Assembly (NCBI RefSeq): GCF_036971445.1 | Contig: NC_091473.1 | Span: forward strand, 72,106,001 to 72,170,000 | Direction: 5' to 3' | DNA length: 64,000 nucleotides | Source of the DNA: Narcine bancroftii | Taxonomy: Eukaryota | Shown: piece after piece, positions 1-54,754 of the stretch | Layout of the letters: each line of letters opens with the position of its first letter | Position numbering within the stretch: the first letter of the stretch is position 1 | The notes under the pieces: model-generated | Seen by the model: only the letters and a program-made list of their open reading frames with translations | Databases searched by the model: none | What the model was told of the DNA's origin: nothing | Program-made: the position numbers and the translations under genes

Positions 1-1298
1 GCAACTGACCAATGTGCAGTCGCTTTTATGTTTAACAATAAGCAGCAGGGTAAAATCAAAAACAATAAGAATAGAACTCTCCACCTATAACTATGACCTC
101 TCGTATCAGCCTGGGAAACTCAACAAGTCTTCAGATGCCCTGCCTCAGGAGACGTGCGCCAGTTCATAGTCTGACCAACTCCAAGCAATCCAAGATGTCC
201 TCTGTCACCCCAGGGTCACCAGGTTCTTTCACTTTGTCAAAGCCAGAAACTGCCAGGTCTGTGCTGAGTGCAAGCCATGCTTCTACAAGGCTGAAAGTTA
301 CACCTGATCAAGGCCACCTATTCCTTTGAACTCCTGAGCATGGATTTCAAGGGGATCCTGCCCTCCTCCAACCGAAACCGATACTTCCTCAACATCAATT
401 CACTTTTGCTATCCTCTGCCTGGATGTGACCATGGCCACAGTCATAAAGGTAACATCTTTACCCTATTCAAGTACTCGAGCTAACTTCACAGTGACAGGC
501 GGTCCTCATTCATGAGTGACGAGTTGCATCAGTACTTTTTGACATGGGGCATCGCCACTAGTAGAACCACCAGCTATAATCCCTGAGTGAACAGCCAGGT
601 GAAACTGGGGAATGCCACCGTTTGGAAGGCAGTCCTCCTAGCCTTGAAATCAAAGGCCTACCCATCTCCCATTGGCAGGAGGTTCTCCCTGAGACACTCC
701 ACGCAATTAGATCCCTCCTGTGTACACCCACTATCACCATGCTACATGAACGAATGTTTTCCTTCCCTCGGAAGTCTGTGTTGGGGACAATGCCACCATC
801 CTGGTTAATCTCCCCAGTACTAGTCCAGCTCCAGAGGCATGTGTGAGGCCATAAGACTGACCCACTGGTCGAGAAGGTCCACCTTCTCTAAGCCAACCCC
901 CAATACAGCTACAGGGCATACCTGGATGGGCACAAAAACACTGTCTCTGTGCAGGACCTGGTGTGCGCAGGAGACCCCATGACTGCCACCAACCCAGTAA
1001 GACCTACTACCACTATCAACCACTGTATATCCGGGCACCCTACCCCGACCCATGCACCAGCTCTCCGACCACCACGGCCGGCCCTCAGCACCTTGCCCCG
1101 ACCTCCACCCCACCTGCCCCTCCCCAGTCACCAGGTAAGTCAACTGCTCACATGCTCCAAATAGACGAGAAACCGGCAGCTGTGCCACAGGCTGACACCA
1201 TGGTGGTCCCTGAGACAAAGAATACCACCAGACTGGCTAAACTTGTGATGGACACTGAACCCACTCCTCCTGGCTGGACTTTCTTTTAAAAGAGGGGG
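1..1298 (+). mobile_element. Degenerate Ty3/Gypsy internal 3' part (RNase H end, integrase, polypurine tract)
   Basis: Frame-broken integrase peptides (MDFKGILPSSNRNRYFL, ATVWKAVLLALKSK, WQEVLPETLHAIRSLLCT) are clearly homologous to the integrase at 11220-12215. A purine tract AAAAGAGGGGG sits at about 1288-1298. Confidence 0.85.
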
Positions 1299-11225: not shown

Positions 11226-14200
11226 CGGTATCCATACGTGCTTAAGCAGGAGCATTGGTCCTAGGGATGTGAGCCATGCTGGGAGGGACATTCCAGTCGC
11301 AGACTTCCTGGAGAATGAGAACAGACATTCATGTGGGGTAGCCGTACACAGCAGTGACCGAATGGCATGGAGCGCCTCGGGCAGGGTGTCCTGCCAGTAC
11401 TCAACAGCCCACCCTTTCAACTTAAGAGACAGGAGAACTACCTTCCAGACCACCCCATTTTCACATTCCACTTGTCCATTGCTTCTCAGATTATAACTCG
11501 TCATGCGGCTAGTCGCAATGCCCCTCGCCGTCAGGTACTGGCACAGCTCATTGCTCATGAAACTAGACCCACAGTCGCTGTGGATGAAAGCGGGGTAGCC
11601 AAACATGGTGAAGATCTGCTCCAGGGCCCTGATGATGGTGTCCGTGGAGGTGTCCGGGCAAGGGATAGCGAAAGGGAAGTGTGAGTACTCGTTCACTACC
11701 GTGAGGAAGTAGACGTTTCGGTTTGTGGAAGCCAGGGGTCCTTTGAAATCCATGCCGAGACGCTCGAAGGGCCAAGTGGCCTTTATGACATGGGCCTGGG
11801 ACGGGTGGAAGAAATGGGGTTTACATTCCACGTAGACCCGGCAGGCCTCGGTCATGTCCCTGACATCCCTGATGGTATACGGCAGGTTCCAGGACTGAAT
11901 GAAGAGGTACAACCTGGTGACACCCGGATGGCAGAGGGACTCATGCAGTGCCTGCAGCCTGTCATCATGCATAGACGCACAGGTGTGAGAGAGGGCATCA
12001 GGGGAGTCGTTAAACTTTCCGGGGCAGTACTGGATATAGTAGCTGTAGGTTGCCAGCTTGACTCTCCAGTGCAGGATCTTGTCGTTCTTGATCTTGCTCT
12101 TGTGGGTAGAGTTAAACTTGAATGCCATGACTTGCTGGTCAGTGAGGAGGGTGAATCTCCTGCCAGCCAGGTCGTGGTACCAGTGGCGGACCACTTCCAA
12201 AATCACCTGGGCCAACTTTTCAATGGCAGAATGTCCTAGCTCAGAGCTGTGGAGGGTCCTAGAGAAGAAGGCGACGGGGCGCCCCCCCCCCCTTGGTTGA
12301 GGGTAGCAGTGAGGGCTACCTCAGAGGCATTGCTCTCCACCTGGAAGTGGGAGTCCTCATCCACGGCCTGCATTGTTGTGTCCGTGATGTCCAGCCTGAT
12401 GCGGATGAAGGCTGTAGATTGGGCCAGTGGGTGGACCTTGTCCAAGAAGTGAGGGACCCACTGCGAGTAATAGAAGAATAGGCCAAGGCACCTGCGGAGG
12501 GCCTTTAGTGTGGGGGGGGGGGGGGGGGAAGAGGTAGCTTCATTAATGGCCGCATCCTTACTGGATCTGGGCTGATGACCCCATGGACCACGATTTACCC
12601 CAGGATGGCGAGGCGGGTGGTGCTAAATGTACACTTCTCCTTGTTATAACTGAGGTTCAGTTCCCCGGCTGCCTGGAGGAATTTTTCCAGCTTGGCATCG
12701 TGGTCCTGCTGGTCACAGCCACAGATAGTGATATTATCCAGATACGGGAACATCGCCTTTAGCTTGTGCCGTTCTACCATGCAATCCATCTCCCACTGGA
12801 AGACAGAGACCCCATTCATGACCCCAAAGGGAACTCAGCGGAACTGGTACAGGTGCCCATCCACCTCAAAGGTGGTGTAGGGCTTGTCCTTCAGGTGCAT
12901 GGGAATTTGGTGATATGCCAACTTCAGGTCAATTGTGGAGAAAACCCGGTAGCGGGCTATCTCGTTGACCATGTTGGCTATCATCGGCAGGGAGTAGGCG
13001 TCCAGTTGGGTGTACCGATTTATGGTCTGGCTGTAATTCACGACCATCCTCGGCTTACTTCTCCCTTTGACCACCAGGACTTGGGCTCTCCAAGGGCTGT
13101 TACTGGGCTCCATGACACCTTCCGCCAGGTGTCGCCACACCTCTGTCTTGATGAACTCTCTGCCTGCGGTGCAATAGTTGCCACCTTCTGGCATCGGTCG
13201 GCTTGCAGCCTAGTGTAAGATGTGGGAAGAGCGCCGGTGGGGTGATGTGTAGTTTGGAGAGGCCGCAGGTTGGCCGGGGCTGGTAGGTTGGTGCACTGTG
13301 TAATGTGAGTGGAGGTTGGGGTACTCTGCAGGTGGCACTGGAAATCCAGGCCCAGGAGGACTGGGGCACAGAGTATGGGCATGACCAGGAGCCTGAACCC
13401 CCTGTATATCTCCCCTCCCACAGTTATATCGGCTGAGCAGCGCCTGAGGGTACCAACAGTCTTATCCTTGGCGACGAGGGCGATCGAGAAGGTGGTAGGG
13501 TGGACTTCTAATCTCACGGAATGGGCCACGCTCGGGTGAAATAAGCTCTCTGTGCTACCACTGTCGAACCAACACTTTGTTACCTGCCTGTTGACTTGCA
13601 CGTCCATCATGGAGCGCTCAAGATCGTGAGAGATGTCCCTGGTCAGAGTGGTGGCAGCCAGAACCATCTCGGAGTCGGAGTCATTGCTCTCTGGCTGTGT
13701 GCGGCGATTTACGGTGTCCGGAGGCATGGGGAGCATCGGTAGGGTGGACTGGTCATCGCCCATGTGACCACATTGTCGTCAGTCGTGGGGTGCAGTGTGC
13801 GGCAACTGATGACATCCGGAGGTGTGGGATGCATCGGTAGGGTGGCCTGGTCATCGTCCATGTTGACCACGTCGTCCCCGTCGTTGTTGGAGGCCCTCCG
13901 TGTCGGCCACTGCCTGGCCCAAGATGGCGGTGGTACGTGGGGACCCGCTGCATGGCTGGCCTCCTTCCCCAGCCATGTTCGTAGTATGGGGCGAAGTGAC
14001 ATCATCTCAATCAGCGGAAGTGACGTCATTACGTCAGCCAGAAGTGACGTCACTTTGGTTCTCGGCGAGCGGTGCTGGCGAGGGCGTGGGCTGGTCCAGG
14101 TGCTCGGGGCACACACTGTAATCATCACTGGCAGGGCCAGATGCTGCACCTTCGGGGTCGGGTAAGGCGGAAGTCATAGCGGGGACAATGGCGCTACCCG

Positions 14201-15040
14201 ACACGCGGACATGGTGGGGTTCGTGGGGGAGGTCATAGAGGACCGCTGAGCTGCCAGCTGGTTTGGAGAGGCACACTTTAGCAAAGTGGCCTTTCTTGCC
14301 ACATCGGGAACAGTACTGATTCCTAGCCGGGCAGTTTAGGCACGATCGTCGTTCTGACCCACATCAGGATCCATAGTACTTACAGGGGCACCGGGCGCCT
14401 GCCACAGCGATGTTCTCCTCTCCAGCTCGGTCTGGGGCTGCAGCTGTAGTGAGAGGGGGCTATGAGGGAGCCTGGGGGTATCTGAAATAGAAGGCTTCAT
14501 TGTGGAGGGCTGCAGCTTCAAGGGTTCGGACCACTTCCACTGTCTTGTTCAGGGCGTAGATACTATCTTCCAGCAGCTTCTGCCAGATGGTCCTCGAGCG
14601 TAGCCTTTGGACGAAGGTGTCCCGGATCAGCCTCTCAACTTCCTCTGCGCCTACCCCAGGTTCAGCTAGACACGGTCGGGCCAACTCTCACAGGTGTCCC
14701 AGGTAAGACTCAGCCGTCTCCCGTTGCTGGAGGTACCTTCCACAGACCGCATTCATGGGGGGGCTTGTACAAGTTCTCGAGAGTGTCCATTGCGCCCTTG
14801 TATGTGGAGCAGCCTTTGGTTGTCTGAAAGGCGTGGGGACCCAGCTTTGACCGGAGTAGGACCAGCCTCTTCTGTTCAGAGTCCAGGATGCCGCCTGTGT
14901 GCGCCTCAATGATTGCTTCGACCGCTTGCCGCTAGATCTCAAAGTATGTCTGGGCTTCCGGGTGGCCTGGGTCGACTTCAAGGCTCCCTGCGCTCAGGAG
15001 TTTTTCCAAGGTAGCTGTGGGAAAAATTTGTGGATTAAAT
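11226..15040 (-). mobile_element. Ty3/Gypsy internal region (gag, protease, RT, RNase H, integrase), frameshifted and 3'-truncated
   Basis: Gag with a CSRCGKKGH knuckle (about 14290-14315), protease WFDSGS, RT PWRAQVLVV...FSTIDLKLAYHQ and PYLDNIT, RNase H LLTDQQ, integrase HHCC region, MDFKGP, IHSDCGSSF, NGQVE. Confidence 0.93.
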
Positions 15041-15378
15041 TGTGGTGCGCTGTTAGCCAGAATCAGACACACACAAGGTAAAGACTGTACATCAGGCTTT
15101 AATCCACAAAGACTTTCACAGAGCCAGGCTGGCTGTAGCTGCAGTAACTCAGAGCGAGACTTCAGGAGGCCGGCGCAGGCTTATATCTCGGAGGGTGATT
15201 GACACCTGACCGGGTGGGGCTTGATCCATTCAAGTCGACTGATTGACAGCCAGCCAGGTGTTGTCCTGTCCCCTTATAGTCCTGCATGTACAGAGGATTC
15301 CCCCTGCAGCAGGCCTGCGGAACACTCCTGCAGGTATAGAGGTTGCTCCCTGCAGTAGGCTGGTGGTGTACCACCACA
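15041..15378 (-). mobile_element. 5' LTR (338 bp) of the Gypsy at 11226-15040
   Basis: 7-bp terminal inverted repeat TGTGGTG...CACCACA. The minus strand has TATA-like GATATAAG (about 15180-15187) and ATTAAA (15098-15103). Confidence 0.85.
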
Positions 15379-32089: not shown

Positions 32090-34090
32090 ACCCATATGAA
32101 AAGAAATAATTAGGTGAGACATGAACGAGAAGTTGGAAATGTCCAGATTAATCAACATCAGCCAGTAAAGTGAGGAGTCAGACAGGGTTTGTGTTCTATC
32201 ACCAGATCTGTTCTCCCTGTACAGTGAAAACATCATGAGAACCAAACAAGACCTACAGTACCTAAAATAAGTATAGGACACAATATCACCAACCTCCGCT
32301 ATGCAGATGATAGCAAGCAGTGAAGTAAATGTACAGAAATTAGTATCTACATCAACACCAAGAGTGAAAGACTTGCCCTAACTTTAAACAAAAAGAAAAC
32401 TGAAGTAATGGTAATATCAAAGAAACCTGATATTCCAAATTGTAGGATTGTATTGGAAAATGAAATCCTGAAACAAGTTCACAACTTCATGATCTGATGG
32501 CAAATCTGAAATAGACATAAAAGCAAGAATAGCATTTATAGAAAAGAGAAACATCCTCTTTTTCAAACTTTTTATTGGTTTTTGAGAAAATAATGATATC
32601 AAATACATAGATACATATGATATAAAGCCCAGGTTGTTGCGGCCCATGGCCTGCATCTCGGGATGACACAGGAAATGGCTGTCAAACACGGTGACCGGCA
32701 AAACATCATGTGGGCCACAACTCCTGCTCGCTGTTCCAGCAGATCTTCCTGGAGAGGCTACCCAAGGACATCAGCTGCTCATTGCGGACTTCGATGATCC
32801 CAGGAAGGTAGCTGCCCGAGCAGACCTGCTATGGGTGGCGAAGAGGGATGCCTGCGCTTCGGCCAGGAAAACCACTGACCGACCGACCAACTGTCCAACC
32901 GACCAACTACCCAAACGCCATGCCCCACTGGTGAGCAGTACTGTTTCTATCACCAACGGTGGGGTTCCAAACCCCATCGATGCCACTCCCACTGTGCATT
33001 CCAGGGAAACGCCCAGGCCGGCCATTGTTAATGGCTGCAATGACTGGGCCAACTGCATAGCCTGCTACACATTCAAGTCTCCCTGTTGGGCCAACGATTC
33101 TTGGTTCCCCCGACCAGCCTGGAGGCCCGCTGCAGCAAAGTGGGCCAGAAGCTCCGAGTGGAAAATGGCTCCAACGTCTGAACATTCAGCACCCGTACCA
33201 TTCCCCAACACTTCGGGGAGAGACAATTCACTTGGCAGTTTACGGTAGTGGCCGTGCAACAACTATTACTGGGTACAGATTTCCTGCGAGACAACTCACT
33301 CCTGGTGGATATCAAGGGGTGTCAGCTGGTGCACACCAAGACATTTCAGTCACTCTCACTCAAGGGCACTGAACTGACCTGCCCCCACCTGCACTCAGTG
33401 AGTACTTCCGACAACGAATTCGCTCAGGTACTTCACACCCCACTTCCATTCGGCAGAACCCAAACATGGGGTGAGGCACCAAATCATTACAGAGGGCCTT
33501 CCAGGGTGCAACGTCTCCTCCCTGAGAAACTCAACCTAGCCAGGGATGAGTTCAAAAAGATGGAGGAACTTGGCATTGTGCGGCACTCCGATCGTCCTTG
33601 GGCCTCCCCTCTTCACATGGTCCCCAAGGCAGCAGGTAGTTGTAGGCAATTGACATCTGCCTTAGAACTCTCAGCTGCTACATTCTTCCTATATTGATGT
33701 ATGGTTGCGAGTCATGGACCATCACAAATGCAATGGGGAATAAAGAATCAGTGCAGCAGAAATGTGGTTTTTTAGAAGAGTGCTATGCATATCATATATA
33801 ACAAATGAAGAAGTTCTACAAAGAACGAAAACAAAATGAACATTACTTAAAAGAATCAGAAAACAGCAATCAAAATTCTTTGGCAACATCATGCAAAGAG
33901 ATACATTAGAACATTTAGTTATAAATGGAAAGCTGGAAGAAAAAAGAAGAGGCAGACAGAGAATGAAACTGATAGATGGATTAACATCATGGTTAGAAAC
34001 AGGGGAGGCAGCAACTACAATTCAGAGGGTCAGAGACCATGTTGGATGGAGAGACATGATCACCTATGTCGAATGGCAAGGCACCTGAAC
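32090..34090 (+). mobile_element. Older RTE-clade LINE (second family) in two pieces (about 32090-32555 and 33655-34090)
   Basis: GVRQG.VLSPDLFSLYSENIMR, NITNLRYADD, YGCESWTI, AAEMWF and LEHLVINGKLEEKRRGRQRMKLIDGL. Confidence 0.8.
32615..33650 (+). mobile_element. CsRn1-like Gypsy internal fragment (gag to RT start)
   Basis: DFDDPRKVAARADLLW, CFYHQRWG, LLGTDFL..NSLLVDIKG, FKKMEELGIVRHSDRPWASPLHMVPK. Confidence 0.85.
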
Positions 34091-48549: not shown

Positions 48550-51500
48550 TTTTTTTTAAATTTTTTATTTTTCACACCATAAATACATTAGCCATGATAT
48601 ACACTTTTTCTTTTTCACACATATACAGTGACTTTTTCTCCCCGCCCCCGTCCCTCCTCCCAAGCCACCCCCCCACCACCCCCCCTCTCATCCATTTTAG
48701 GTATACAATCTAGGTTGCATTAAACCAGTCAGACCATGTTGTCATTCAACAAAAATACACCAGAAATTCTACTGAGTCCATTCTTTTCTTTCCTTCTCCT
48801 TCCATCAACTTAGGTAATGTTTGTCCCTGGTAGGTTTTCGCTATTGTATTTAATGTAGGGCTCCCATACTTGTTCGAATATTTCAATATTATTTCTTAAA
48901 CTATATGTTATTTTTTCTAATGAAATACATTTATTCATTTCTATATACCATTGTTGTATTTTCAAATTATCTTCCAATTTCCAGGTTGACATAATACATT
49001 TTTTTGCTACGGCTAGGGCTATCTTAACAAATCTTTTTTGTGCATCCTCCAAATCAATTCCAAATTCTTTGTTTTTTATGTTACTTAGGAGAAAGATCTC
49101 TGGATTCTTTGGTATATTGTTTTCTGTTATTTTATTTAATATCTGATTGAGATCATCCCAAAATTTTTCTACTCTCTCACATGTCCAGATTGCATGAATT
49201 GTTGTTCCCATTTCTTTTTTACATCGAAAACATCTATCAGATACTGTTGGGTCCCATTTATTTAACTTTTGCGGTGTAATGTATAGTCTGTGTAACCAAT
49301 TATATTGTATCATACGTAGCCTCGTATTTATTGTATTTCTCATCGTTCCAGAACATAATTTCTCCCATGTTTCCTTTTTTATCTTTATATTTAAATCTTG
49401 TTCCCATTTTTGTTTAGCTTTACCATTTGTTTCCTCATTCTCCTTTTCTTGCAGTTTAATATACATATTTGTTATAAATCTTTTGAATAACATTGTATCT
49501 GTAATCACATATTCAAGGATACTTCCCTCTGGTAAACTCAAATTGCTTCCTAATTTATCTTTCAAGTAGGATCTCAGTTGGTAATATGCCAGCGCTGTAT
49601 CTCCAGTTATATTGTACTTATCTCTCATTTGTTCAAAGGATAAGAATCTACTTCCTGAAAAACAATTTTCTATTCTTTTAATCCCTTTTTTTTCCCATTC
49701 TCTAAAGGAAAGGTTATCTATTGTAAAAGGGAGTAGCTTATTTTGCGTCAATATTAGTTTTGGTAATTGATAATTTGTTTTATTTCTTTCTACATGAATC
49801 TTCTTCCAAATATTGAGGAGATGATGTAATACTGGAGAAGTTCTATGTTGTACCAATTTTTCGTCCCATTTATATAATATGTGTTCAGGTATCTTTTCCC
49901 CTATTTTATCTAATTCTAATCTCGTCCAGTCTGGTTTTTCCCTTGTTTGATAAAAATCTGATAGGTATCTTAATTGTGCGGCTCTATAATAATTTTTGAA
50001 GTTTGGCAATTGTAAGCCTCCTTGTTTATACCATTCTGTTAATTTATCTAGTGCTACCCTCGGTTTCCCCCCTCTCCATAAAAATTTCCTTATTATTTTC
50101 TTTAACTCTTTGAAGAATTTTTCTGTCAGTTGTATTGGCAATGCCTGAAATAAGTATAATATCCTTGGAAAAATGTTCATTTTAATACAGTTTATCCTTC
50201 CTATCAGTGTTAGTGGTAGATCTTTCCAATGCTCTAAATCGTCCTGTAATTTTTTCATTAGTGGATTGTAATTGAGTTTATATAATTGGCCTAGATTTTT
50301 GTTTATTTGTACACCTAGGTATCTTATTGCCTGCATTTGCCATCTGAATGGAGATTCCTTCTTAAATTTTGAGAAATCCACATTATTCATAGGCATTGCT
50401 TCACTTTTATTTACGTTTATCTTGTAACCCGACACTTCTCCATATTCCTTCAATTTCTTATATAATTCTTTTATTGATAGTTCTGGTTCTGTTAAGTACA
50501 CTATAACATCATCCGCAAATAGACTGATTTTATATTCCCTGTCTTTTATTTTTATTCCTTTTATATTATTATCTATTCTTATCAATTCTGCTAGTGGTTC
50601 TATAGCTAGCGCAAACAATAAAGGTGATAGTGGGCATCCCTGCCGCGTTGACCTGCTTAAGTTAAATTGCTTTGATACATGTCCATTTACTGTCACTTTC
50701 GCTAACGGTCCCTTATATAATGCTTTAATCCAATTAATATACTTCTCCGGTAAACTGAATTTTTGCAATACTTTGAACAAATAATTCCATTCTACTCTGT
50801 CGAAGGCCTTCTCTGCGTCTAAAGCAACTGCTACTGTAGGTGCTTTATTTCCTTCTACTGCATGAATTAAGTTAATAAATTTACAAATATTGTCTGTTGT
50901 GCGTCTTTTTTTGATAAATCCAGTTTGGTCTAAATTTACCATTTTCGGTACCTGTTCTGCTAATCTGTTTGCTAATAGTTTAGCTATTATCTTATAATCT
51001 GTGTTTAGCAAAGATATTGGTCTATATGACGCTGGTGAGAGTGGATCTTTCCCTTGTTTTAGTATTACTGTAATTATTGCTGTTTTACATGAATCTGGTA
51101 AGTTTTGTGTCTCATCAATCTGGTTGATTACATCCAGGAGGGGCGGTATTAATAAGTCTTTAAATGTTTTGTAGAATTCTATTGGAAATCCATCCTCTCC
51201 TGGTGTCTTATTATTTGGTAATTTTTTTATAATCTCTTGTATTTCTACTGTTCCAAATGGTTCTGTTAATTTATTTTGTTCCTCTATTTGTAGTTTTGGT
51301 AGTTCAATTTTAGTCAAAAATTCATCTATTTTCCCTTCTTTCCCTTCGTTTTCAGTTCGGTATAATTGTTCATAGAATTCTCTAAAGTTTTCCTTAATTT
51401 CTTTTGGATTATATGTAATTTGTTTGTCTTTTTTCCTTGATGCCAATACCATTTTCTTAGCTTGCTCTGTCTTAAGCTGCCATGCTAGGATTTTGTGCGT

Positions 51501-51661
51501 TTTTTCACCTAGTTCATAATATTTCTGTTTTGTCTTCATTATATTCTTCTCTACCTTATATGTTTGTAATGTTTCATATTTTATTTTTTTATCCGCCAAT
51601 TCTCTTCTTTTAGTTGTATCTTCCTTCATTGCTAATTTTTTTTCTATGTTTACTATTTCCC
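48550..51661 (-). mobile_element. Young 5'-truncated L1-clade LINE with 19-bp TSD
   Basis: TTTAGAAATACTTGATCTT at 48531-48549 and 51662-51680, with AATAAA and an A tail on the minus strand. Confidence 0.96.
48810..51629 (-). CDS. L1 ORF2 fragment (RT and C-terminal Cys domain, endonuclease missing), 939 aa without stops
   Basis: KTPGEDG, YRPISLLNTDYK, LDAEKAFD, TRQGCPLSPLLF, LFADD, YLGV and CFRC..H..WTC. Confidence 0.95.
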   Translation of the reverse strand: MKEDTTKRRELADKKIKYETLQTYKVEKNIMKTKQKYYELGEKTHKILAWQLKTEQAKKMVLASRKKDKQITYNPKEIKENFREFYEQLYRTENEGKEGKIDEFLTKIELPKLQIEEQNKLTEPFGTVEIQEIIKKLPNNKTPGEDGFPIEFYKTFKDLLIPPLLDVINQIDETQNLPDSCKTAIITVILKQGKDPLSPASYRPISLLNTDYKIIAKLLANRLAEQVPKMVNLDQTGFIKKRRTTDNICKFINLIHAVEGNKAPTVAVALDAEKAFDRVEWNYLFKVLQKFSLPEKYINWIKALYKGPLAKVTVNGHVSKQFNLSRSTRQGCPLSPLLFALAIEPLAELIRIDNNIKGIKIKDREYKISLFADDVIVYLTEPELSIKELYKKLKEYGEVSGYKINVNKSEAMPMNNVDFSKFKKESPFRWQMQAIRYLGVQINKNLGQLYKLNYNPLMKKLQDDLEHWKDLPLTLIGRINCIKMNIFPRILYLFQALPIQLTEKFFKELKKIIRKFLWRGGKPRVALDKLTEWYKQGGLQLPNFKNYYRAAQLRYLSDFYQTREKPDWTRLELDKIGEKIPEHILYKWDEKLVQHRTSPVLHHLLNIWKKIHVERNKTNYQLPKLILTQNKLLPFTIDNLSFREWEKKGIKRIENCFSGSRFLSFEQMRDKYNITGDTALAYYQLRSYLKDKLGSNLSLPEGSILEYVITDTMLFKRFITNMYIKLQEKENEETNGKAKQKWEQDLNIKIKKETWEKLCSGTMRNTINTRLRMIQYNWLHRLYITPQKLNKWDPTVSDRCFRCKKEMGTTIHAIWTCERVEKFWDDLNQILNKITENNIPKNPEIFLLSNIKNKEFGIDLEDAQKRFVKIALAVAKKCIMSTWKLEDNLKIQQWYIEMNKCISLEKITYSLRNNIEIFEQVWEPYIKYNSENLPGTNIT

Positions 51662-52099
51662 TTTAGAAATACTTGATCTTGAAGAGCGCTCGCCTTCTGT
51701 AAATTGCAAAGGACTTATTTTACTCCTTCCTCCCTCGCAACCACATCCCATTGCCCTCCACAAGTTGCACGCACTTCTCCACCCTGACAATATTGTTCAC
51801 TGCAGCAAGGCTCAAATTACAAATAGAGCAAAAAAAAAGATGTAACCCTGTGGTTGACGAAAATACAAAACGGAGCTTTCAGTGATGGAAATCTCCAACA
51901 GGTCAAGCAGTGACAGTGGAGGGAGGAAAGAGGAGTCAATCGTTAGAACTTAACCAGCTGCATTTCATTAAGATGAGAGGGACAGTGAGAGTAGAGAGTC
52001 AGAGTGAGATCAGAAGCTCCATCTGGCATGACTCATCCAGATATGTTGCATAGTAGTAGCAGGACTGACCTGCCATCTCCCAACATTCCAACCCATTGT

Positions 52100-53495: not shown

Positions 53496-54038
53496 CCCAC
53501 CTTTATATGGTGCCACAGTTTCCATTTCTTCTTTACCAACTCGATGTACCATCAATAATCACGAAAGGCTGATATTAACTAAAGATAGGAACTACCCACA
53601 ACCTCATCAAATGATCGAAGCAAAGAGAAAGGAAACATCCAAGGGGCTATGGGTTGGATCACTTGAGTCCAGCTGGCAGTAGCCAGTCATGGCACAACAG
53701 TGGTTTGCTACATTACTGCTGTTCTTACTTTATCTCCAATTCTTTCATCATTCACCCAACCACCCCCCCCCCAACCACACCCATACTCTCCCCCTATCAC
53801 TTCAATCCTCTCACCTTTTGCCCAATACTCATATCAACTTTTGACCCCTCACCAGAACCTTTATATATGTAATATCAACTCATTTTTGAACTTGGTCTTA
53901 ATTAAGGGCCCCGACCTGAAACATTGACGGACCATTTTTACCCCTGGACACTGAATTCTTCCAGCAGCTCTTTGTTTCCTCTGGATATCTCAACTGTTTG
54001 GTATTCATCTTTCAGCTGTCATTAGATCATGGAGTTAG

Positions 54039-54539
54039 AGTTCAGCTGTTTCTTTCCTGTGTCAGCAGTCGTGTTTTGCTTCTCCCCTTCTATTTAATAC
54101 TGAAGTACATTATAGTTCAGCTGTTTCTTTCCTTTGTTGGCAGTCGTGTTTTGCTTCTCCCCTTCTATTTAACACTGAAGTACATTATAGTTCAGCTGTT
54201 TCTTTCCTGTGTTGGCAGTCGTGTTTTGCTTCTCCCCTTCTATTTAACACTGAAGTACATTATAGTTCAGCTGTTTCTTTCCTGTCTCGGCAGTCGTGTT
54301 TTGCTTCTCCCCTTCTATTTAACACTGAAGTACATTATAGTTCAGCTGTTTCTTTCCTGTGTCGGCAGTCGTGTTTTGCTTCTCCCCTTCTATTTAACAC
54401 TGAAGTACGTTATAGTTCAGCTGTTTCTTTCCTGTGTCGGCAGTCATGTTTTGCTTCTCCCCTTCTATTTAACACTGAAGTACATTATAGTTCATCTGTT
54501 TCTTTCCTGTGTCGGCAGTCGTGTTTTGCTTCTCCCCTT
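54039..54539. repeat. 75-bp minisatellite, about 6.7 near-identical copies
   Basis: Units start at 54039, 54114, 54189, 54264, 54339, 54414 and 54489. Confidence 0.97.
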
Positions 54540-54754
54540 TTGACTTCCACTGGTGCAGTTATCAGTAGTACCCTTACCTCAGATGAAGGGTCAAAAGCAA
54601 GGCATGAAATTATATAGTGCTTTTTATGTCCAATGATCATCCCAAAGCACTTTATAGCCAACAAAGCACTTTTAAAGCAGCAGCTCCCAATTAATACCTG
54701 AATAACAAATGGGCACATTAACTACTTTGGTGAAATATAAGTGTCAGTCAGATT

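Follow-up and report, generated by a model that had tools for sequence, protein, structure and literature searches.

The window, a 64,000-nucleotide stretch of Narcine bancroftii contig NC_091473.1, contains on its minus strand a decayed, 3'-truncated copy of a Ty3/Gypsy LTR retrotransposon. The copy opens with a 5' LTR of 338 bp (15041..15378, TGTGGTG...CACCACA) and continues with a gag region that has a CCHC zinc knuckle near 14312 and is interrupted by stops and frameshifts (14238..15009), an aspartyl protease (13341..13604; PF13975, PF13650), a reverse transcriptase with in-frame stops in which YLDN replaces YXDD (12540..13130; motif at 12744-12733), an RNase H (12045..12293; PF17917) and an integrase core (11228..11771), all on the minus strand. 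The order gag-PR-RT-RH-IN is that of Ty3/Gypsy LTR retrotransposons, and all of the ORFs are broken. The copy ends within the integrase at approximately 11230 and possesses neither a polypurine tract nor a 3' LTR. The U3 region includes a 46-bp unit (15378-15287 in the window, and in L025, L027, L283 and L287) that occurs in one to more than ten copies among LTRs. Other repeats in the window are an RNase H/integrase remnant from another member of the same clade (4-972, plus strand; 49% to P0004), two CsRn1-like elements and a third CsRn1-like fragment near 33182-33697 (plus strand), an open, apparently young non-LTR retrotransposon frame of 950 aa that is presumably L1/Tx1-like (48810-51662, minus strand), and a tandem array with a 75-bp period and two open frames (53960-54634).

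The unusual feature of this copy lies at the junction of the LTR and the internal region. The LTR end is followed by a one-base spacer, A (15040), and the primer-binding position then reads TTTAATCCACAAA (15027..15039, minus strand) with no TGG. This 13-mer has a perfect complement within the LTR, the arm TTTGTGGATTAAA (15110-15098, minus strand), the final six bases of which are ATTAAA and the end of which is the putative 3' end of a self-primer. Since the window copy has no 3' LTR, the boundary of the LTR was examined in other copies of the family. The 5' LTR end is present in 37 of 40 fetched genomic stretches, the primer-binding site comes next in all 37, in a few cases with point changes, and TGG directly follows the LTR end in none of these 37 junctions. 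An exact-pattern search of the genome returned 803 LTR-PBS junctions of the normal form. Other copies carry the Ty3/Gypsy hallmarks of TG...CA LTRs, a purine tract ahead of the 3' LTR and a short target duplication; among 20 copies with both ends located, counted by eye, the duplication is an exact 5 bp in 11, has one mismatch in five and is missing in four. The 3' LTRs and 5-bp duplications of these copies fix the boundary at 15041, and loose ends in public contigs (four runs from one study) coincide with 15041 and 15378. Consequently, the two sequence features on which the earlier note was built, a 13-mer one base past the LTR in place of TGG and its perfect LTR complement overlapping ATTAAA, are both borne out, and full-length copies have the same LTR boundary.

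The arm is situated within the predicted transcript. A TATA-like box, TATAAG (15180..15185, minus strand), is the predicted promoter, and 30 nt past it is an initiator-like site (15153..15158, minus strand) that reads CTCACT in most family copies; by the usual spacing between a TATA box and the start, transcription would begin near 15155. The arm would then occupy +46 to +58, in agreement with the earlier estimate of roughly 50 nt past the predicted start. A similar TATA-like box is found 84-87 nt before the 3' end of the arm in five of seven own-genome rows. Just beyond the duplex is GCCT (15094..15097, minus strand), a candidate cleavage-site signal, and RCCT follows the arm in 20 of 27 hand-picked loci. 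The arm ends in AATAAA or ATTAAA in 17 of these 27 loci, the rows of which are not all independent, and the hexamer is absent in ten, three of which have a canonical hexamer outside the duplex. In the predicted 5' RNA, the duplex has a pair probability of at least 0.77 at 11 of 13 positions, and the predicted unpaired probability of the hexamer region is 0.00-0.12 with the PBS versus 0.13-0.55 without it. Masking of a 5' poly(A) signal by a hairpin has precedents among retroviruses. The proposal that the duplex also masks the 5' LTR poly(A) signal is plausible for the window family and is not general, given that only 17 of the 27 loci have the hexamer at the arm end. Separately, in each of the elements L085, L091 and L095 the 5' and 3' LTRs carry different subfamily markers close to the predicted start, which may reflect recombination between co-packaged RNAs.

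Taken alone, the pairing is not significant, as a lone 13-nt inverted match has an E of 1.3 against the window and the whole region folds no better than its shuffles (z -1.24). It is the fixed position of the pairing and the conservation of complementarity across families that rule out chance. A scan of metagenome and genome contigs yielded 87 loci, with the gag start located by profile search in 39, and the 33 loci with a strong gag match and at least 150 nt upstream were kept. These 33 loci, 32 own-genome loci of other families and the window gave 66 upstream regions that fall into 24 LTR clusters. In a blind test that took the first member of each cluster and the longest perfect pairing between its pre-gag region and an LTR, pairing of at least 11 nt with the own LTR was found in 16 of 24 clusters (median 13), whereas cross-cluster pairs reached this length in 5 of 552 cases and shuffles in 2 of 240. 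Some of the eight members that score below 11 nt are visibly decayed, and the gag match of L140 is that of a second element. Covariation was assessed in 18 loci picked for showing pairing and aligned without structure, with L181 shifted by the aligner. Of 234 cells, 94% pair, a fraction that is inflated by the selection of rows for pairing, and both sides change at 11 of 13 pairs; none of 500 shuffles equals the pairing and covariation of these loci, and slid registers reach 21-52%. Covariation between the post-LTR 13-mer and the LTR site, the check that the earlier note placed first, is thus present across related families.

The register of the pairing is also fixed, with the LTR end, one spacer base and then the paired stretch. 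This holds by search construction in all 27 hand-picked rows, and the same one-base register occurs in loci whose LTR end is set by a 3' LTR. The PBS sequences vary among families, each matching its own LTR and not one another. The arm is 13 nt long in the window copy and 10-18 nt in relatives, and the loop spans 20-67 nt in the 27 hand-picked loci, not all of which are independent. Within the window family, both sides are perfect in 29 of 45 copies and uncompensated changes are found in 15, as expected of decay after insertion; the only compensated pair is in L080. Arm-PBS pairing is a feature of the whole clade.

The identity of the primer was also approached through the tRNA genes of the host. 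The sample comprised 52 genes from 50 loci with 20 anticodons, without His, Trp, Gly, Leu, Val, Pro, Gln, Tyr or mitochondrial tRNAs. The required primer has no match longer than 6 nt, or longer than 8 nt with G:U pairs, among these 52 genes, and the best match of internal tRNA segments to the PBS in this incomplete set is 6 nt. The 13-mer is consequently unmatched in the tRNAs at hand, as the earlier note anticipated, within a sample that covers part of the host repertoire. The two CsRn1-like elements of the window have TGGTGACCCC just past their LTR ends (47604 and 24041, minus strand). These are sites of the TGG type, as had been stated; their designation as tRNA-Trp sites is presumptive, the sample including no host tRNA-Trp gene.

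A search with the PR-RT-RH frame of one copy as query produced 935 relatives. The named ones belong to elasmobranchs, corals, Mytilus, Trichinella, a psyllid and a sea slug, with rays and catsharks supplying the closest proteins. A scan of IMG/VR found no relatives, and a PDB search gave only distant matches, to Ty3 and a caulimovirus-type RT. For comparison, RTs were taken from sushi-like chromoviruses of the same genome (found via integrase and chromodomain, then extended), from own-genome Gmr1-like elements and from the two CsRn1-like elements of the window, group labels that are assumed from domain order and characteristic motifs. An own-genome search for SH3_Tf2-1 returned mostly Gmr1-like elements, which were taken as the outgroup. 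The chromovirus references in the trees are fish sushi-like proteins and one fungal protein, identified by chromodomain, with Tf1 absent; Mag, MolGy1-16, Saci2, Tor, Cigr-1 and Barthez reference elements were not knowingly included. A quick RT tree of 75 rows has SH-aLRT values of 99 for the clade (49 rows) and 98 for chromoviruses (17 rows), and a careful tree of 28 rows, built under LG+G4 with no mixture model and subject to a long-branch warning, gives supports of 100/99 and 99/98, respectively. In the latter tree, a topology that nests the clade with the sushi-like RTs is rejected (p-AU 0.041), one that makes it sister to all chromoviruses is not (p 0.32), and the clade RT is apart from both the CsRn1-like and the Gmr1-like groups.

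Domain content agrees with this placement. Neither a chromodomain nor SH3_Tf2-1 was detected in six clade proteins (P0010 ends before the C terminus), the controls being positive in two of two chromoviruses, and neither domain is listed for any of 120 relatives. Furthermore, the RT motif is YXDN and not YXDD in 83 of the 107 relatives in which it was found, including elements with identical LTRs. This motif could be linked to unusual priming; the literature searched holds nothing relevant on YLDN. The element is therefore assigned by its RT and domain content to a widespread chromodomain-less animal Gypsy clade. Membership of the Tf1/sushi group, against which the earlier note had suggested placing the RT, is rejected, since the RT falls outside the chromoviruses in both trees and the chromodomain and SH3_Tf2-1 are absent. 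An independent origin of self-priming in the clade consequently appears likely, though a sister position to chromoviruses fits as well.

The same genome harbors an old, small family of sushi-like chromoviruses (L188, L192 and L224-L235, approximately 14 loci), the copies of which are too decayed to serve as a positive control for self-priming. The Gmr1-like family (L189-L207) is abundant and has its integrase ahead of the RT. L181-L187 are animal retrotransposons of the clade whose contigs are assigned to bacterial MAGs, probably through contamination by host DNA.

Additional information comes from junctions that are aberrant at the duplex. In L080, the PBS continues as the complement of the LTR sequence upstream of the arm. 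The exact-pattern search, which detects unmutated junctions only, found 41 junctions in which the complement runs on in this way and 17 with a single A>G after the PBS, in addition to the 803 normal junctions. Among the 41 run-on junctions, 35 continue as inverted LTR into U3 and six stop after 18-37 nt (five at approximately 18 nt, two of which re-enter the normal internal region, and one at 37). Seven of the 35 are palindromes composed of a whole LTR, the spacer and inverted R-U3; approximately 17, when read on the opposite strand, are an LTR with a minus-sense U5 stretch inserted after the arm, past which normal sequence continues; and the others switch to internal or other sequence. The inverted parts mostly end at the first base of U3. 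Target duplications of 5 bp are present at both ends of 13 of the 41 run-on junctions in exact form and of seven in near-exact form, and because such duplications are the signature of integrase, the products were formed before integration. They are inferred to have arisen during reverse transcription and not by slippage in host replication. On a low-resolution tree of LTR copies the run-on loci are scattered, 10 loci requiring 9 changes against a mean of 9.6 in shuffles, which suggests repeated events.

Breakpoints in these products also bear on the site of cleavage. Among the 28 long-extension loci that lack a full sense LTR, seven have a sense segment beginning at LTR position 276-287, the arm end being at 280, with the other starts at 175-261 (five), 290-297 (two), 320-326 (eleven) and 331-333 (three). 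The cluster at 276-287 has a P of 4e-5 if starts are uniform over the LTR and 0.02 over its predicted transcribed part, values for a cluster that was noticed post hoc and of which one member, L305, is also a microhomology deletion. By eye, the minus-sense U5 copy ends at approximately 281 in about 12 further loci. The simplest reading of breakpoints at the arm 3' end is that templates often ended there, as a Tf1-like cut predicts. The run-on PBS copies were also considered as a map of the transcription start, a use that was rejected as they stop at 18-37 nt or enter U3. The halves of palindrome L266 differ in subfamily markers, indicating that pairing took place between two molecules at least once; the markers match in four of the seven palindromes. 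In L286, the inverted part takes in the polypurine tract and reaches the internal 3' end. The palindromic LTR insertions (L266, L268, L269, L272, L276, L284 and L286) have U3 ends on both sides and, in five cases, 5-bp target duplications; with two inward-facing promoters, they would yield long hairpin RNA.

The run-on products are proof that extension took place on the partner site from strands whose ends lay in the arm or the PBS. Initiation is not proven by them, since identical junctions result when plus-strand DNA switches templates at a 13-nt inverted repeat. The proposal of tRNA-independent self-priming in the earlier note is nonetheless well supported, as an interpretation, by the covariation, by the lack of a tRNA match in the incomplete set and by the aberrant junctions at the duplex. 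It is very probable that elements of this clade prime reverse transcription with their own RNA and not a tRNA. With good confidence, the best overall explanation of the locus is a decayed Gypsy element of a chromodomain-less animal clade, the PBS of which pairs with its own LTR and which was likely self-primed.

The predicted promoter and the predicted duplex in the 5' RNA favor a primer that is a 5' fragment of approximately 58 nt cut at AAA/GCCT. In this mechanism, transcription would start near 15155, placing the arm at +46 to +58, and the arm would pair with the PBS to close a 58-nt loop. The RNA would then be cut at the AAA/GCCT boundary, probably by the RNase H of the element by analogy with Tf1, to yield a capped primer of approximately 58 nt with its last 13 nt paired. 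Next, RT would copy the spacer and U5 back to the cut, generating a strong-stop DNA of approximately 58 nt that could transfer to the short stretch of R bounded by the hexamer and the poly(A) site. Finally, plus-strand synthesis would copy the paired end of the primer. In this way the arm would be the source from which the PBS is rewritten in each cycle, and the joint change of arm and PBS would be accounted for. Given self-priming, this 5'-fragment geometry is moderately favored, and the model with all of its steps has roughly even chances of being correct.

The main rival to the 58-nt 5' fragment is priming by the arm in the 3' copy of R, on the same or a co-packaged RNA, which would pair with the PBS and have the tail past AAA removed; the approximately 45 nt of R upstream of the arm would then be the homology for strand transfer. 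Such priming would account for the conserved spacing of approximately 45 nt from the predicted start to the arm (five own-genome rows), and both the reach of the L286 inverted part, across the polypurine tract to the internal 3' end, and the differing markers of the L266 halves are in its favor. However, breakpoints gather at the arm 3' end and not at the predicted start, as expected of a 5' RNA cleaved past the arm, the inverted parts mostly end at the first U3 base as plus-strand DNA would, and markers match in four of the seven palindromes. Priming from the 3' end or in trans is accordingly regarded as unlikely, with a modest share of the probability.

A second alternative is that the duplex is purely regulatory, serving to hide the poly(A) signal or as a packaging or translation switch, while the primer is a host RNA or priming takes another route. 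The arm-end hexamer in 17 of 27 loci, the predicted pairing of the hexamer in the 5' context and the retroviral precedent for masking are all expected of such a duplex. A masking partner need not begin exactly one base past the LTR end, yet it does in the 27 loci, where the search imposed this register, and in loci with the LTR end set by a 3' LTR; ten of the 27 loci have no canonical hexamer in the arm; and PBS sequences that differ freely among families would demand a new host primer each time. A solely regulatory role is therefore improbable. Priming by a tRNA fragment or half-molecule that shares the sequence by chance has a precedent in Copia lineages primed by half-tRNAs, according to the available text of PMC6317226, and the tRNA sample was incomplete; a best match of 6 nt in 52 genes and a PBS that varies across families while matching its own LTR make it very improbable. 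The weakest alternative, a chance inverted repeat or a misplaced LTR boundary, draws on the insignificant single match (E 1.3) and folding score (z -1.24) and is refuted by 3' LTRs, target duplications and conservation with covariation, leaving it a negligible probability.

Self-priming is best understood in Tf1, where, according to the available text of PMC7175516, the transcript's initial 11 bases pair with the PBS and cleavage by RNase H falls between bases 11 and 12. Similar to Tf1, Tf2 of Schizosaccharomyces pombe and Tj1 of S. japonicus, as described in the available parts of PMC7175516, PMC4600332 and PMC5341516, the window element has no tRNA site and instead a short duplex between the post-LTR sequence and its own LTR. 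In contrast to Tf1, which uses the initial 11 nt of its transcript as primer, the 13-nt arm of the window element is predicted to be internal (+46 to +58); the clade arm also usually has a poly(A)-type hexamer at its end and RCCT next to it, and the RT belongs to a different clade, with YLDN and animal hosts. The self-priming of the clade is predicted from sequence, as it is, in the accessible text of the sources, for the sushi/Amn-like vertebrate chromoviruses (V-clade, PMC2774666), sushi-like copies of which occur in the same genome, and for Tcn1 (PMC6317226, PMC2864245). Unlike the sushi/Amn-like chromoviruses, the window clade has neither a chromodomain nor SH3_Tf2-1, and its RT lies outside the chromoviruses. 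The plant Ty1/Copia TAR lineage, for which the available text of PMC6317226 predicts self-priming through at least 10 bp starting 0-5 bp after the LTR, provides a precedent for a repeated origin outside Tf1/sushi, although the window element belongs to another superfamily and kingdom.

The clade resembles MolGy1-16 (PMC6238403) and Saci2/lennie (PMC12471100), as these are described in the accessible text, in being a large non-chromovirus animal clade, and it has mollusc members. Compared by description only, it may be one of the clades of the MolGy1-16 type; the main text of the MolGy paper (PMC6238403) makes no mention of primer sites. Saci2/lennie was set aside as a name for the clade, again in a comparison by description only; Saci2 families are described as tRNA-primed in the available text of PMC12471100. 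Overall, the text available from these sources describes self-priming for Tf1, Tf2, Tj1, sushi, Tcn1 and plant TAR Copia, and leaves the primer site of Skipper unexplained. No description of self-priming in a non-chromovirus animal Gypsy clade was found in the accessible text of PMC3601003, PMC6317226, PMC5006619, PMC12801592, PMC11117352, PMC7175516, PMC5341516, PMC6238403, PMC4600332, PMC2774666, PMC2864245 and PMC12471100, a search to which Repbase Reports, subscription journals and supplements were external, and primer terms had no match in the available text of PMC8556966. The present case would thus be a known mechanism in a lineage outside Tf1/sushi and, as far as the literature searched shows and Repbase aside, new in that lineage.

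Repbase annotators have reportedly noted self-priming in some animal Gypsy families. So far, self-primed reverse transcription has been demonstrated for Tf1 of fission yeast, with predictions extending to the chromovirus relatives of Tf1 and to one plant Copia lineage. The broadest form of the present proposal, put forward tentatively and with somewhat less than even confidence, is that an animal-wide Gypsy clade (rays, sharks, corals, mussels, nematodes and insects) evolved self-priming apart from Tf1/sushi, with an internal primer end that lies at AAA/RCCT approximately 58 nt from the transcript start, is usually joined to the poly(A) signal and can pair between two molecules; approximately 5% of the clade's junctions in this genome would be integrated by-products in which the priming duplex and the position of the cut are preserved. 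Such by-products offer a way to map priming intermediates from sequence alone, and the mechanism is open to direct testing in relatives that are naturally intact and have identical LTRs. If the proposal is true, annotation tools that demand a tRNA site would miss or mislabel elements of the clade. The elements themselves would be expected to evade silencing by tRNA fragments that target the PBS. This would be a second, abundant clade of self-primed Gypsy elements, in animals, and would imply that tRNA priming has been dropped repeatedly.
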